Source: Escherichia coli (lineage in GTDB: Bacteria; Pseudomonadota; Gammaproteobacteria; Enterobacterales; Enterobacteriaceae). Taken from it: a stretch of DNA of 64,000 nt. A model generated the notes under the pieces. That model saw nothing but the letters and a program-made list of their open reading frames with translations, was not told the origin of the DNA and made no database searches. Below, piece after piece: positions 15,554 through 25,779 of the stretch (within the stretch, counting starts at the first letter, position 1; each line of letters opens with the position of its first letter). The DNA is taken from assembly GCF_051903065.1 (NCBI RefSeq), contig NZ_CP178438.1; one strand, written 5' to 3'. The position numbers and the translations under genes were made by a program.

Positions 15554-16120
15554 TCAGAAGTGAGGCTTACGAGGACGCCCTGCTGCAGGACGTTCAGGAA
15601 CTTCATTGCAGCCGTAGGCACACAGCCCGTCTTTTTGCTCTTCTTTCGCCAGATAATGCAGGGCACCGCGAATATTATTGATGCTTTCAGGATCGTTGTG
15701 GCGCACAGGAATGTTGATGTTGTATGTATAATGCGGCTGATATGTACAGCGGTGTGCCGAACCGCTGTTATGCGTAATAGACCGCCAGCATTCCGTAATC
15801 CGCTCCGCAAAGGGATATATTTTTTTAACCCTCTGACGATCGATCCAGAAAACCGCATGCGCATGAAAACCATGATCAACCGTCCATTCAATCACCCAGA
15901 AGAAGCCAACGATATTTTCAAATTGTTCTACCTGCTCCAGCAGCATACGCAACTGCAATTCAAGCCAGCGATGATCAGGTTGTAAGAAATCAGGCGTATC
16001 TTTCCTGTAGAAGAAATCCATGCGTAAGGCCCGCAGGCAGGAATAGCGTGCCATCATTTGATTGATGTGATTGTCAAGTAAAGCGGTAAAAAACCAGTTT
16101 GGTGTATAAGATTTAGGCAT
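15554..16120 (-). CDS. YagK/YfjJ-family (inovirus Gp2-like) protein, paralog 2
   Basis: 188-aa ORF; …DHGFHAHAVFWIDRQRVKK…; preceded by about 1 kb of AT-rich ORF-free DNA. Confidence 0.6.
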   Translation of the reverse strand: MPKSYTPNWFFTALLDNHINQMMARYSCLRALRMDFFYRKDTPDFLQPDHRWLELQLRMLLEQVEQFENIVGFFWVIEWTVDHGFHAHAVFWIDRQRVKKIYPFAERITECWRSITHNSGSAHRCTYQPHYTYNINIPVRHNDPESINNIRGALHYLAKEEQKDGLCAYGCNEVPERPAAGRPRKPHF

Positions 16121-17930: not shown

Positions 17931-18371
17931 TCACTCATAATCAGAACAAGATGATGATGTGCCCTGAGATATAAGAAAATCATCAAGAGAACCTCCGGCT
18001 TTTATTGCTTCTGCAATAACAGAAGGCCGACGACCTTGTCCACTCCAGTACATTATTTGACCGTTATACTCATACCTGTACTTATTAGACTCTCCTGAAT
18101 CGTTTTTTCTGCCCGTCTGTAATTTTTTGCCAAATTCACGATACACATCTTCCGCCGTTACACCTGCGTCATCCATGTACTTTTTGATAATTGCCAAAGA
18201 ATCCTTCAACTCATTACGCTGCTCAATGGCCTTTTCAAGGTTATCCTTAACTTGATTGAAGTCTTCATCAGACATTTCCATGATCAACTTCCGGACAAGG
18301 TTGGAATTAAGAAGTGATGTACGAACAGTAGAGAGATCTTCATTCTCAACAGAAAACTTCTTCTTGCTCAT
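17931..18371 (-). CDS. H-NS-family nucleoid-associated protein (horizontally acquired paralog)
   Basis: 146 aa; C-terminal DNA-binding region …KYRYEYNGQIMYWSGQGRRPSVIAEAIKAGGSLDDFLISQ contains the H-NS TWTGQGR-type motif; N-terminal coiled-coil region. Confidence 0.8.
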   Translation of the reverse strand: MSKKKFSVENEDLSTVRTSLLNSNLVRKLIMEMSDEDFNQVKDNLEKAIEQRNELKDSLAIIKKYMDDAGVTAEDVYREFGKKLQTGRKNDSGESNKYRYEYNGQIMYWSGQGRRPSVIAEAIKAGGSLDDFLISQGTSSSCSDYE

Positions 18372-20127: not shown

Positions 20128-21006
20128 TTATTTCAGCGTGCCGAACTGTTTGTCTTTCAGTGCATATAGTCGGTCGAACTCAGCATAGGGCTCTCCCGTT
20201 TCAGCCGCGTGCCGGGTTTTAGCATCCAGAAGGTCGGGTAAAGGGATCCTATGATTCAGTGAGTGGTAAAGATCATAACCACTGACACAGATAACCCGCT
20301 TCCCTTTACCAAAAGCCGTCAGGCCTTCAGGCGTAAAGCCCATCCAACTGATAAAAACACCGCGTGTCCAGGTTGCCTTGGTACTGAGCTTTCCTTCAAA
20401 TACATGGAGGTCGGCAGCCGACGTTCTTTTCTGATGCCACTTTGCCTCCATCAGGTAAAATTCATCATTCAGTCGGAAACTTCCGTCAATCTGTTCGCCT
20501 GTATTTCGGAAAGACGAACGGGGAGCAAGCTTAAAGATACTGAACAGTTCAGCAAGCCAGGCTTCAAACCGAAAACCACGTGGATGTGGCGGCAGAGATT
20601 TCATCTCGTTCATTTCAGCGATAAGTGAATGCCAGTCAACACCATGCCATGCCTGGACAGGCTTAACGCCTTTGGCTTCATCGGTGTCAGCGTTTTCTAA
20701 GCGGGAAATCAGTGCAAGATAGTCATTACGGCTTTGTTCAGCCTGTTCAGGCATGGATTCCGTTTTATACTGCCAGAGCGCACCAAGAACCCGCAGAGCG
20801 GTCTCACGATCAACCTGTTTCAGCAAGCATCTAACTCGTTTGGCTTTTGACGTCCCCTCTTTCTGATAACGTTCATCATCAATATCAATGTTCAATTCTT
20901 CATCGAAAAAAGCAGACAAGGTGCGGTTAGAGAAATCCAGTATCCAGCCAGGATCGCTCTCGAACACAATATTAAACAGCCTCAAATCCTGCATTTTCAG
21001 TTTCAC
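20128..21006 (-). CDS. Mrr-like restriction endonuclease-fold protein with unknown N-terminal domain
   Basis: 292 aa; C-terminal …[25 protein letters not shown]… is a PD-(D/E)xK (D…E-A-K) core resembling the Mrr catalytic domain; N-terminal 130 aa unassigned. Confidence 0.55.
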
Positions 21007-21333: not shown

Positions 21334-22065
21334 TCACCTGCCATCCAGTAGACGCCCCAGCCCACGACTGCAACCATAATTACGTTGACCAGAACCGTCA
21401 TGCTGCTTCGTCTCATACTTCACGAGATAACGGGCTCTCTCCATGGCTTTCTGCATCGCTTCCACATCACCACGCTTGACCCAGAGAACAGCGGATCCAC
21501 CAGATTTTTTGTCAGAATCCTTCCGGGTATCAGAACATCCACCAGGCACAGGCGTATCATCGGAAGAAGGGCGAGCATCAGATGATGTCGGTTTACGGAA
21601 AGGCGTCCGCCTGGAAAAATGAACCAGTCCATTACCCTGCCAGGGCTCAAGATGCAGAGCACTGCACCATGCCAGCTTGATCAGTGTCGCCAGCGAAGAA
21701 GGAACGGTGAAATCCCCTGGCGAGCACCAGGTATCTTTGTTGAGCAGTAATATCACGTGATAATGTTTCCTGCCTTTTTCCTTGCCAAACTCCCGACACC
21801 AGAAATAACGCAGAGTGGTTGCACGCACACGCTTGTTGGCACGTCGTTTTTTCCGCTGGTAAGCCTGAATTTTTGCTTTCAGGGATGCAAAAAAACGAGA
21901 AATCACCGCTGAATCTAAATCGGTATCCATGATGGTGGCAGGCATATACTCAGGGAAACGTAAATCCACCCGGATTAACGAGACGGCACGGTGTTGCGCC
22001 AGGGCACCGTTGAGAATACTTTCAAAACGGGATAACCAGTAAGCATTGTGTATTGGTTGATTCAT
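21334..22065 (-). CDS. YagK/YfjJ-family (inovirus Gp2-like) protein, paralog 3
   Basis: 243 aa; …KHYHVILLLNKDTW… core; preceded by about 1.5 kb of AT-rich ORF-free DNA. Confidence 0.6.
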   Translation of the reverse strand: MNQPIHNAYWLSRFESILNGALAQHRAVSLIRVDLRFPEYMPATIMDTDLDSAVISRFFASLKAKIQAYQRKKRRANKRVRATTLRYFWCREFGKEKGRKHYHVILLLNKDTWCSPGDFTVPSSLATLIKLAWCSALHLEPWQGNGLVHFSRRTPFRKPTSSDARPSSDDTPVPGGCSDTRKDSDKKSGGSAVLWVKRGDVEAMQKAMERARYLVKYETKQHDGSGQRNYGCSRGLGRLLDGR

Positions 22066-23579
22066 GATGAGAGATCTCCGTTGATTTGGATTGACTTCAC
22101 ATCATTAATCACCGCGGTAAAACTTTACGGCATCCGGCATTGAGCAATGCTACAACTTTCGGATTAAGAGTGATTGAAACGGAACAAACCATCCCGGAAC
22201 AAAAAGATAATTCTACACGCAGGGTAAAAACACTCAAGAACAGCGAATGGATTTAAAAACGACATGGACAACGAGAAAAGTCAGAAGGGAAAAGGATCCA
22301 CAGAACATTCAAACAAAACACCAGAAACGCAACCAGAACGCTTCCTGGTAATGCAAATCAACAACAACCCCAAAACCTACAGCTTAATCACACAACTCAA
22401 TCACGGATGCGAATGACACGTTTAAAACCTGTTTACAGATAACGCCGTTACACGATCATCCCCATCAGAATCGATTTTCCCTTCCTGAAAGCGTTACGTT
22501 TCACTACGCACCATAAAAACGATTAACCATCGATAACGTAAACTTCATCTGAATCAAAACACCAAAACCGTTCATCACACTTTCGCAATGCAAGAAGAGT
22601 CACATCATGACGAAAACAATGACCTTACACGGAAAAGAAAACGTCAGGAATCGTTAATGCCTCAATCTGATTGTTATCAAAACATCCAGAAAGTCGTTTA
22701 ACAGAATCGTCGTAAGCACATCGAAAAGAACGTCAGATTACTTCAGGAAAGTTCGGGTTGATTTAGCGTAAAGATACTTTTCTCATGCTAACGTCGAAAC
22801 TCGAAATATCAGGAAAGGTTAAACGTAACATCAGTAAAATCGAATAGCAGATTGATTGCTGAAGCAGAAAGGTTTTACAGCAGCATTAAACTGATTTTAG
22901 CTAACGTAAAGATTTACTAAACTGGATGTATTTCAGACAAAGCAATGTGTACAGCAATGCTTAACGAAAACACTTGTAGAAGTGTTTATGAAAATACGTG
23001 TATAACACTTACTGAAATGCTTAGTAAAAATACGTGTATATAGTATCATACCGACATTCTCAACTCTTCCAAACATCCATGCAGACTGAATGTTGATTAC
23101 CCGTTTTCACATCAGGCATGGTTCTTTACTGACCAAAAAACAAACTGGTTTACTCTTGAATTATTTTCTCTACCTCAGAAAACATGGTCTCAGGAATCTG
23201 TTATGGCTTCGTAGTTTCTGTTGTTCTTTTCATAAAAGTTATAAGTTATTGTCATAATCATACGATAATCACTTTATGTTAGTTTTTACTGTTACACGCT
23301 ACTGACTTTTTCAGTCATTGCCAGAAAGGGGCTCTTTTTACTTCCATTTCACCACTCAACAAATGCAAAACTCGTCCAGTAAAGCGGACCACCACTTGCT
23401 CACAAGCAACGAATCGTCTCCAGGAACAGCCCTCAAACATTGCAGAAACAAAAACAACAAAACCCTCATTATCACTGATGTTCGGAAAATTTCCATGACC
23501 CAAAAAACGAAATTTAAATGAGACGCATTATCATGCGTGTGATCAAAAAGACGTTATGGTAGCTTTCAGTTAAATGGTG

Positions 23580-24710
23580 CTATTTCTCATAAATCCACTT
23601 AACTTTTTTTACTGATTCATCCCAGAGAACCACTTTATCAGTAAAAAATGAATTATATAGATTGACGAGTTTTTCTGTTTCAGTTATTCCCAATGCATTA
23701 TGTATCAGTTGTAGATATGCTTTTATCCAGATTTCTTTACCCTCCCTCCACTTATCTATAAAAATTTCCAACTTACTTAATCGTTGATTTATAAAAAATG
23801 AATCAATATCATGAAAAAACTCAACAAGAAAACAGCACGAGATAATCTCAACAAAAAACAAATTCTCCTTAAAAGCATTATAAAACTTTATCAACACATA
23901 ACGAAAAACACCTCCTGTTAACCTTTCCTGTTCATAAAACAACAAGCCAAAAATAGGCGGAAATCTTTTAACCACACCACTTTTAATCCAGTAAGGATGA
24001 TGATTAGTCTTTACTGGCAGTGAATAAAAGAACAATTCGGTTTCTCTTTTCCCACCACAAACAGACAAAACAGTCTTATAAAGACTTTTTGAATCACTAT
24101 ATCCTGACACTCCAGACGAATTAGCAGGGTATTTTCTTTTTACTTTTTGCCTTAATGGAGCTGGAAGAATAATAAAACGGGATGGTAGATAACAATCGCT
24201 TTCAGAAGACCTGCATTCGCACACATGAAGATTTATATTTACATCCGGACAATTCAAAAACCACACAGAATAATTATCGCTCCGTTTGCAATATGAAACC
24301 CATGAATAAATTGCATAAAGTTCAGAAAGTACATCTAACTCTGCTTTTGATTTAAATGTGATACCGTTTCTTCGAATTCTCGTTTCCAGCGTTCTCCATG
24401 CCGGAGTTTTCAGTATCTCACGAACTTTTTTATTAAGTTCAACCAGCGATGGTCCCTGCTCCTGTTTATGTTTCTTCCTGCTGTTAATGATTTCTCTTTC
24501 TTTTACTAATTTTTTCTTACTTTTGGGTCCTTTTATCTTTCTTGGCAATGCTTCATTTAATCTGTGAACAGGATTTTGCTCTCTTCTTTTTTTGAGCTCA
24601 CAAAACCTCTCATAATGTTTTCTGCACAGTCTTTTCTCCACTGCCATTTTTACTGAGAAAACCTGATTGTTACAATTTTTTCTGACGCATTTGTTTTTAC
24701 GTCCGGTCAT
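23580..24710 (-). CDS. Hypothetical low-GC protein with N-terminal Cys cluster
   Basis: 376 aa, Lys-rich; N-terminal CVRKNCNNQ…CRKHYERFC suggests a zinc ribbon; no homolog recognised. Confidence 0.5.
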   Translation of the reverse strand: MTGRKNKCVRKNCNNQVFSVKMAVEKRLCRKHYERFCELKKRREQNPVHRLNEALPRKIKGPKSKKKLVKEREIINSRKKHKQEQGPSLVELNKKVREILKTPAWRTLETRIRRNGITFKSKAELDVLSELYAIYSWVSYCKRSDNYSVWFLNCPDVNINLHVCECRSSESDCYLPSRFIILPAPLRQKVKRKYPANSSGVSGYSDSKSLYKTVLSVCGGKRETELFFYSLPVKTNHHPYWIKSGVVKRFPPIFGLLFYEQERLTGGVFRYVLIKFYNAFKENLFFVEIISCCFLVEFFHDIDSFFINQRLSKLEIFIDKWREGKEIWIKAYLQLIHNALGITETEKLVNLYNSFFTDKVVLWDESVKKVKWIYEK

Positions 24711-24894
24711 CCTCTCATCTCCTGAAACCGCAGTATGTCATTAGTTCCCGTTCTGAAAAACTCACTTCATACTCCATTACACTTTAACAATAATATCCGT
24801 AATTCAGACATTCCATCATTTTTCACGTCCATATTACCTGAATGATAAACCGGATTAGTGTGATCCGGTTCAGTGAAATCAACAGGATACCGGT

Positions 24895-25779
24895 ATGTCA
24901 TTCAGCCATTCTTCCCTCTCCGCACAAGTGAAATCATATCTGACGTTTCTTCCTGAAGAAATTCGTCAGAAAATTCTTGAACATCTCCACAGCGTTATTC
25001 ATTACGAACCCGTGATTGGCATTATGGGTAAATCCGGCACCGGCAAAAGTAGCCTGTGTAATGCTATTTTTCAGTCCCATATCTGTGCCACACATCCCCT
25101 GAACGGCTGCACCCGCCAGGCTCATCGTCTTACCCTGCAGATCGGTGAACGCAGAATGACGCTGGTCGATCTGCCCGGCATTGGAGAGACGCCGCAACAT
25201 GATCAGGAATACCGGGCGCTTTACCGTCAGTTACTGCCGGAAGTGGATTTGATTATCTGGATCCTGCGGGCAGATGAACGCGCGTATGCCGCCGACATTA
25301 CCATGCATCAGTTTTTACTGAATGAAGGCGCAGATCCCTCGCGTTTTCTGTTTGTTCTCAGCCATGCCGATCGCGTGTTTCCTGCTGAAGAATGGAATGC
25401 CACAGAAAAATGCCCGTCCCGTCAGCAGGCGCTCTCACTGGCGACGGTGACAGCCCGGGTGGCAACCCTGTTCCCTTCATCATTTCCGGTACTCTCCGTT
25501 GCTGCACCTGTCGGCTGGAACCTTCCGGCGTTTGTGTCGCTGATGATCCACGCACTGCCACCACAGGCAACCAGCGCGGTGTATTCACATATCCGGGGAG
25601 AAAACCGCTCTGAACAGGCCCAGAAACACGCACAACAGACTTTTGGTGAAACCATCGGGAAAAGTTTTGACGTCGCCGTTGCCCGTTTCAGTTTTCCGGC
25701 CTGGATGTTACAGCTTCTGCGTAAAGCCCGGGACCGCATTATCCACCTGCTGATCACACTGTGGGAGCGTCTGTTCTGA
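24895..25779 (+). CDS. YeeP/YkfA/YfjP-family GTPase (CP4-type prophage)
   Basis: P-loop GIMGKSGTGKSSLCNAIF and DLPG motif; N-terminus close to E. coli YeeP/YkfA. Confidence 0.8.
   Translation: MSFSHSSLSAQVKSYLTFLPEEIRQKILEHLHSVIHYEPVIGIMGKSGTGKSSLCNAIFQSHICATHPLNGCTRQAHRLTLQIGERRMTLVDLPGIGETPQHDQEYRALYRQLLPEVDLIIWILRADERAYAADITMHQFLLNEGADPSRFLFVLSHADRVFPAEEWNATEKCPSRQQALSLATVTARVATLFPSSFPVLSVAAPVGWNLPAFVSLMIHALPPQATSAVYSHIRGENRSEQAQKHAQQTFGETIGKSFDVAVARFSFPAWMLQLLRKARDRIIHLLITLWERLF

Follow-up and report, generated by a model that had tools for sequence, protein, structure and literature searches.

We found that an Escherichia coli gene annotated only as encoding a hypothetical protein most likely encodes a catalytically dead derivative of the HNH nucleases with an N-terminal zinc-finger-like module, and that it behaves as a backbone component of its genomic island and not as variable cargo. 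The gene, hereafter ORF376, is a coding sequence (CDS) of 376 amino acids with an ATG start (RefSeq WP_047928958.1, 'hypothetical protein'), located at positions 23580..24710 on the minus strand of a 64,000-nucleotide stretch of E. coli DNA (contig NZ_CP178438.1 of assembly GCF_051903065.1; the whole stretch is referred to as the window). A preliminary description of the window had presented it as a low-GC orphan open reading frame (ORF) with a zinc-ribbon-like Cys/His cluster; the probable HNH nuclease ancestry of the family and the apparent loss of the catalytic residues in the window protein were missed at that stage.

ORF376 was shown to be a real gene under purifying selection. A purine-rich, Shine-Dalgarno-like sequence (GGAG...GAGAGG) lies just 5' of its start, and the chance probability of a stop-free frame of 376 codons at its base composition was ~3e-13. 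Among 5,426 complete E. coli genomes, 462 had a match to the CDS, which was full length (coverage of at least 80%) in 458. These intact copies were all chromosomal, shared 95.8 to 100% identity, and included that of strain CFT073, whose protein is WP_001339473.1. The ratio of nonsynonymous to synonymous substitution rates (dN/dS) was 0.25 to 0.32 against two other alleles, the 80%-identical E. coli allele at locus L007 and that of CFT073. The possibility raised earlier that the ORF is a chance frame was thus contradicted by the intact copies, the dN/dS of ~0.3, and the frame probability. In E. coli strain E29 (NZ_CM143894.1), an IS1A insertion splits the gene in two, which was the sole clearly disrupted copy among the records listed. 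The composition of the protein was as first described, with 12.0% Lys, an isoelectric point of 9.73, and a net charge of +33; residues 201-376 contained 18.8% Phe, Trp, and Tyr and 37% Ile, Leu, Val, Phe, and Met. The reported low GC content was also borne out when the flanks were compared, as the ORF showed 33.7% GC (28.6% at third codon positions) versus 50.3% for the adjacent Gp2-like gene, 53.0% for the adjacent GTPase gene, and 46.6% for the whole window.

The HNH relationship was seen in the family alignment of 28 sequences, in which 11 members have an intact HNH motif and 17 are degenerate, the whole E. coli/Klebsiella clade being among the latter. At the columns of the beta-beta-alpha core, the 11 intact members showed the motif LEVCH.YPNS.GG.N...N.II.P..INR. 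When a 75-position profile of this motif was compared with 177,635 distinct PDB sequences, all five matches were HNH nucleases, namely, three IscB-type 'HNH nuclease domain' proteins, the HNH endonuclease 4h9d, and McrA, each with an E value of about 1 and in register on the His, GG, and Asn residues of the intact motif. A Pfam scan of the intact-motif segments matched only HNH_4 (3 of 11 segments; best E=1.4e-3) and HNH_5 (2 of 11; best E=4e-3). In addition, residues 142-187 of the family member P0030 weakly matched the HNH region of Cas9d, and two structural relatives in the AlphaFold database (AFDB) carry the UniProt label 'HNH endonuclease'. The full-length profile of the intact clade gave only spurious matches to mitoribosomal uL18 in the PDB, and the trimmed motif profile alone was informative. 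Because the matches were unanimous and in register, though each was sub-significant, descent of the family from HNH (His-Me finger) nucleases is considered to be the only reasonable reading.

In the window protein, the fold of this core appears to be kept and its active site lost. In an AlphaFold2 (AF2) model derived from the alignment of the 28 family sequences (mean predicted local distance difference test score [pLDDT], 83.9; predicted template modeling score, 0.71), a beta-hairpin and a helix fall exactly at the HNH motif columns and have the beta-beta-alpha topology. This placed a degenerate HNH core at residues 158-193 (24132..24239, minus strand), as also indicated by column comparison with the intact relatives. 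At the catalytic positions, His is replaced by Glu165 and the three Asn residues by Tyr174, Arg178, and Arg187, and the GG turn is lost. In the degenerate clades, the column of the catalytic His is occupied by E, T, K, S, Y, F, W, or V, and all 17 degenerate members keep the hydrophobic strand pattern and an invariant Pro183 with every catalytic position replaced. Midpoint rooting of a distance tree placed the intact members in one clade and the degenerate members on the other side, suggesting a single ancestral loss. The window protein is, on this comparison of sequences, most likely a catalytically dead HNH derivative. A literature search for named 'inactive HNH' precedents returned Cas9 and Cap5 papers only.

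The N-terminal Cys/His cluster belongs to a conserved zinc-finger-like module in which metal binding is putative. The zinc-finger region comprises residues 1-55, within which a CCCH module was defined at residues 8-32 (C8-x4-C13-x15-C29-x2-H32; 24615..24689, minus strand) from conservation, the structure model, and weak profile matches. The four candidate ligands were invariant and had fixed spacing in 23 module copies from 22 of the 28 family members, the module had a pLDDT of ~96, and a helix comes after the C8/C13/C29/H32 ligands. All five residues of the cluster noted in the preliminary description (C8, C13, C29, H32, and C37) were present in a finger-like arrangement. C37, however, was kept in the closest clade only, so that the likely ligand set is CCCH and not five residues. 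The best matches of the module profile in the PDB were true zinc fingers, the N-terminal finger of TtuA (E=0.09) and the zinc-binding domain of ClpK; these matches align on the LCxxHY knuckle and the subsequent helix and were not significant (E=0.09-0.7). No Pfam zinc-finger family matched the N-terminal module. The CCCH finger was retained in the intact-HNH and dead-HNH clades alike. Two further variants of this region were observed: P0026 has two CCCH fingers in tandem, and in the intact-HNH clade another Cys cluster (C-x2..4-C...RN.KYCS..CR), absent from the E. coli clade, intervenes between finger and HNH core (columns ~115-150 of alignment A2).

Between the finger and the core, residues 56-88 form a Lys-rich linker (30% K; 24447..24545, minus strand) with a pLDDT of <50 at residues 58-82 and poor conservation in alignments A1 and A2. 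Residues ~89-200 were modeled as a helical stretch followed by strands 161-165 and 179-183 and helix 184-193. The remainder of the protein is an all-helical, aromatic-rich C-terminal domain at residues 205-376 (23583..24098, minus strand), which was delimited from the AF2 model and from residues conserved family-wide. The positions shared by the entire family (P252, L256, R263, E288, and Y352 in an LYNSFF motif) all lie in this domain of ~170 residues, which has no known relative. The aromatic and hydrophobic character of this part had been described correctly at the outset. A membrane protein was considered and rejected, as the most hydrophobic 19-mer scored only 1.8 on the Kyte-Doolittle scale and is buried in the predicted helical bundle. 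No solved structure with the overall fold of the protein was found.

The family is small, taxonomically narrow (Enterobacterales), and uncurated, and the label of orphan given to ORF376 does not apply, because full-length homologues occur in several Enterobacterales genera at identities from 95% down to 16%. Full-length homologues were found in E. coli (95% and 80% identity) and in Klebsiella, Atlantibacter, and Citrobacter (~31%), and more distant Enterobacterales homologues were 16-23% identical to the window protein. A word-indexed search returned full-length homologues at 38% (P0004) and at ~31% (Klebsiella, Atlantibacter, and related genera). An exhaustive search of 1.84 billion cluster representatives with a close-clade profile gave 38 proteins in all. 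The distant full-length members (370-430 amino acids) had library-wide E values of 1.8e-14 to 7e-4, and the same profile reached intact-motif proteins over their full length (P0030, E=1.8e-14; P0032, 3.4e-14; P0033, 2.5e-13). The 23 relatives that Foldseek returned from AFDB50 all belong to Enterobacterales (E. coli, Salmonella, Klebsiella, Citrobacter, Serratia, and Providencia), and the close-clade alignment picked out three loci among 100,044 species-representative genomes (in Klebsiella oxytoca, an Atlantibacter sp., and Citrobacter freundii). No clear homologue of known function was found: the window protein had no match in Pfam (even at E≤10), NCBIfam, PADLOC, or PDB sequences, and ten relatives were likewise unmatched to curated families beyond the sub-significant HNH matches. 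No defence-protein model of PADLOC-DB 2.0 was matched by the window protein or these ten relatives at E≤1. A PHROGs search with the window protein gave a single match, to a family of unknown function (E=0.1). An HMM search across all window ORFs revealed no second family member, and no paper dealing with the protein or mentioning WP_047928958.1 came up in a literature search.

The genomic position of ORF376 was as previously stated, between the gene for an inovirus-Gp2/YagK-YfjJ-like protein, which is downstream on the same strand (21334..22065, minus strand), and the gene for a YeeP/YfjP-type GTPase, which is its divergent neighbour (24895..25779, plus strand), both assigned by annotation. 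ORF376 heads a leftward set consisting of itself, a 1.5-kb ORF-free stretch, and the Gp2-like gene; where the set is uninterrupted (L007 and CFT073), it continues past Gp2 with genes for a 191-aa protein, AlpA, and UCP030791. The divergent, rightward set comprises genes for the GTPase, WYL-HTH, DUF905, DUF932, KlcA, RadC, DUF987, CbeA, and CbtA. The slot had been suggested to hold variable cargo, but when the gene was looked for in other islands, it was found in the same place, beside the GTPase or WYL gene and with the AlpA/Gp2 set, down to ~20% identity at every locus with sufficient flank. Among islands carrying a family member, the same slot was occupied even where the copies were only 16-31% identical. 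In the Klebsiella, Atlantibacter, and Citrobacter islands (31% identity) and at the P0037 locus (L019; ~21% identity), the GTPase gene is divergent and the family gene is followed by AlpA and then Gp2; at the P0035 loci (L010-12; 16% identity), WYL is divergent and Gp2 precedes AlpA; and at the five loci of the intact-HNH clade (17-21% identity), the gene stands directly after AlpA or an AlpA-sized gene, with no Gp2 in any. AlpA adjoined the family gene in all loci with enough flank, except on the short L015 contig. In the degenerate clades, Gp2 followed the family gene at 9 of 10 loci (L002, L007, L010, and the L019-L023 group), versus none nearby in the five intact-HNH loci (L009, L013, L014, L024, and L025), and a P4-type integrase was upstream in the intact-HNH loci where this could be seen (L013, L024, and L025). 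The gene thus behaves as a backbone component of CP4-44/CP4-57-like islands of the P4-integrase type.

The window island itself sits at the fimH/gntP/uxuA region, with a tyrosine recombinase gene far upstream, and has undergone much rearrangement mediated by insertion sequences (IS). At 20128-21006 and ~15554-16120 (both minus strand), a gene for a 292-aa 'restriction endonuclease' and IS256 fragments separate the Gp2-like gene on the ORF376 side from a second set of YagK/YfjJ (Gp2-like), 191-aa protein, AlpA, and UCP030791 genes. This insertion indicates that the leftward module of the window is interrupted and partly duplicated relative to L007 and CFT073. Upstream in the same composite island, Rfam identified the Hfq-binding small RNA isrC (150 bits; 9332-9454) and a group II intron domain (12218-12304) beside an ltrA reverse transcriptase/maturase gene. 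Defence cargo was seen in several family-bearing islands: DndBCD and HamA plus a helicase (Hachiman type) in L001 (strain W5-6), GmrSD_N/AAA_15/DUF3696 with a methylase in L013 and L010, and TIR with BrxR-WYL in L019.

The noncoding stretches on both sides of ORF376 showed conserved features. Between ORF376 and the divergent GTPase gene (24711..24894), an invariant -10-like GTAATAT (24831-24837, minus strand) was found in alignment A8, whose six islands range from the E. coli type to those of Klebsiella and Citrobacter; ahead of it is a CCGG...N11...CCG pair, the spacing of which is conserved. These elements probably represent a -10 element and, at the -35 position, an operator. On the other side, the ORF-free stretch between ORF376 and the Gp2 gene (22066..23579, minus strand; 38% GC) was characterized by allele comparison and repeat analysis. 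It was ~88% identical to its counterpart beside the 80%-identity allele (L007), and the CDS itself was 86% identical. An iteron-like cluster at 22950-23040 contains the exact 14-mer AAAATACGTGTATA twice with a spacing of 36 bp, together with nested imperfect repeats of 26-29 nucleotides, and L007 has an extra 12-bp unit; ACGTTA/TAACGT-like motifs were numerous at 22490-22920. The stretch may serve as an origin or as an array of binding sites. No terminator-like site was found after ORF376 in the scanned region 23300-25000, and Rfam over the whole window gave no family in 22000-25000. The genes of the degenerate clade were low in GC in every host (34-36% versus ~50% for the flanks), unlike those of the intact clade, and established knowledge of H-NS suggests that the low GC content likely makes ORF376 a target of H-NS-type silencing. 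The window island also encodes an H-NS family protein (~17931-18371, minus strand; 30431-30871 in L017) in a low-GC patch between IS256 remnants, which is relevant to the predicted silencing of the AT-rich ORF376 region.

For the function of ORF376, we tentatively favour, with somewhat less than even confidence, a non-catalytic, DNA-binding HNH derivative serving the AlpA/Gp2 (excision/replication) module of the island, of which the functional step is one that we infer. The DNA-binding, non-cutting role is suggested because the protein is very basic, the zinc finger is retained, and the catalytic residues are lost. The protein would combine a CCCH finger, a flexible Lys-rich linker, a beta-beta-alpha core inherited from an HNH ancestor, and a helical domain, and it would bind island DNA and help to control or target excision or replication with no cutting. 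Its partners would be AlpA (excisionase/activator) and the Gp2-like, rolling-circle-type initiator, and the candidate DNA targets would be the conserved AT-rich 1.5-kb region with its iteron-like repeats or the divergent promoter region. The pairwise divergences of ORF376 and Gp2 tracked each other (window versus L007 and L020), as expected of co-evolving partners.

Several observations weigh against this reading. The individual HNH matches were all sub-significant (E ~1e-3 to 1). A generic consensus promoter scan of 23300-25000 returned nothing above shuffled sequences. In the window, AlpA lies ~9 kb from ORF376, with IS, restriction-endonuclease, and H-NS genes inserted between them. Divergence was also fast: between the E. 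coli and Klebsiella islands, identity was 31% for ORF376 versus 52% for the GTPase, 70% for AlpA, and 73% for DUF932. ORF376 and the Gp2-like gene had the highest dN/dS of the backbone (0.25-0.32 versus 0.04-0.19 for the GTPase, DUF932, and RadC genes). This fast divergence and higher dN/dS also fit a conflict-related role in defence or anti-defence.

Among the alternatives, an autonomous transcriptional regulator or silencing modulator of the island that needs neither AlpA nor Gp2 and works at the divergent promoter of ORF376 and the GTPase operon appears unlikely. In its favour are the basic character and the zinc finger of the protein, the divergent transcription of ORF376 and the backbone operon with the conserved -10-like block and CCGG..CCG pair between them, and the AT-richness of the gene and its surroundings in an island with an H-NS paralogue of its own. 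However, the islands already have dedicated regulators (WYL-HTH and AlpA), no regulator family was matched, and a protein of 376 amino acids that combines an HNH-derived core and a large, conserved domain of helices would be atypical of a simple repressor or activator. P2 Ogr and P4 Delta, which P4-type elements encode, are zinc-finger activators acting at the level of DNA and transcription. An activator of the Ogr/Delta type was rejected, as there was no match to Ogr_Delta or any other Pfam profile and the size and architecture are quite different. A conflict gene, whether an anti-phage sensor or effector, an anti-defence protein, or a decoy, kept in a fixed island slot and evolving in an arms race, is slightly less probable still. 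Rapid divergence and low GC content are the best arguments for it, but no PADLOC model matched the protein or its ten relatives, its position and its partners (AlpA and Gp2) are conserved, unlike those of hotspot cargo, the residues of an effector nuclease are lost, and the dN/dS was well under 1. Low GC content in a defence-rich island is alone insufficient ground to count the gene as a defence candidate.

We regard as rather improbable a more specific role as an island-maintenance factor, in which the nuclease would have become dispensable once the Gp2-like (HUH-type) initiator was recruited, the dead-HNH protein would be an origin- or site-recognition subunit, and the 1.5-kb iteron stretch would be its target. 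The presence of Gp2 is correlated with the loss of the HNH residues, and this correlation is weak evidence because the tree makes it essentially one event. If such a two-part initiator existed, the 'cryptic' CP4-type islands would be replicative elements. The 5.1-kb contig of P0030 was considered as a small plasmid in which the protein would have a Rep role; it showed no terminal overlap, so that circularity was not supported. Very little weight is given to an active nuclease using non-canonical residues (Glu165, the nearby His162, or a local Cys). The beta-beta-alpha scaffold is kept, and His162 and Cys154/164/166/173 surround the site in the E. coli alleles, but none of these residues was conserved, even in the Klebsiella-type homologues, and the metal-ligand Asn positions are Arg or Lys. 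Finally, a chance ORF or a decaying, functionless pseudogene is scarcely credible. The lack of annotation and of a family match and the single genome with an IS1-split copy would be compatible with it, but it is refuted by conservation: besides the improbable frame, the 458 of 462 matched E. coli genomes at the coverage threshold, and the low dN/dS, the protein is conserved over its full length down to 16% identity and gave a confident AF2 model.

The molecular identity of the 376-aa protein has thus become much clearer, and its function is what we infer from that identity and its setting. In E. coli, Shigella, Klebsiella, and Salmonella, islands of the CP4-44/CP4-57 type are among the commonest integrative elements. 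Their cargo includes virulence, resistance, and anti-phage genes, and most of their backbone functions are obscure. A long-standing 'no similarity' backbone ORF would now appear as an HNH-derived pseudo-nuclease with a zinc finger and with ties to AlpA and a Gp2-like protein, which gives a testable handle on how such islands excise, replicate, or regulate themselves. The family would also be a natural example of a nuclease turned non-catalytic, with intact and dead clades both available for comparison.

Compared with known systems, the window island has the gene set of the CP4-57/CP4-44/SRL-PAI backbone (int, AlpA/Vis, YfjI/YfjJ-Gp2, YfjP/YeeP, YfjQ-DUF932, KlcA, RadC, and CbeA/CbtA). In CP4-57 of K-12, other genes (yfjK-M and rnlAB) presumably lie between yfjJ and yfjP. 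In the updated ORF table of the SRL PAI of Shigella (PMC6980539), several ORFs located between AlpA (orf41) and the GTPase (orf46) are still entered as having 'no similarity', which indicates that this part of the backbone is still uncharacterized; the same region houses ORF376 in the window island. At the protein level, the finger of TtuA (3vrh/5mko) and the ClpK domain (8p66) share the LCxxHY knuckle alignment with the window module, whereas its first knuckle is C-x4-C, unlike the CxxC of small CxxC/CxxH fingers such as those of TtuA and ClpK. The intact relatives share H-x2-P-x3-GG-x-N-x3-N-x8-N in register with HNH endonucleases (HNH_4, PF13395; HNH_5, PF14279; 4h9d of Geobacter; McrA, 6ghc; IscB/Cas9). 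In contrast, the window protein lacks the Cys pairs by which many HNH domains are typically flanked, and it adds an unrelated helical domain of ~170 residues and a separate N-terminal finger. In these terms, it is a catalytically dead variant within the HNH superfamily whose overall architecture is novel.

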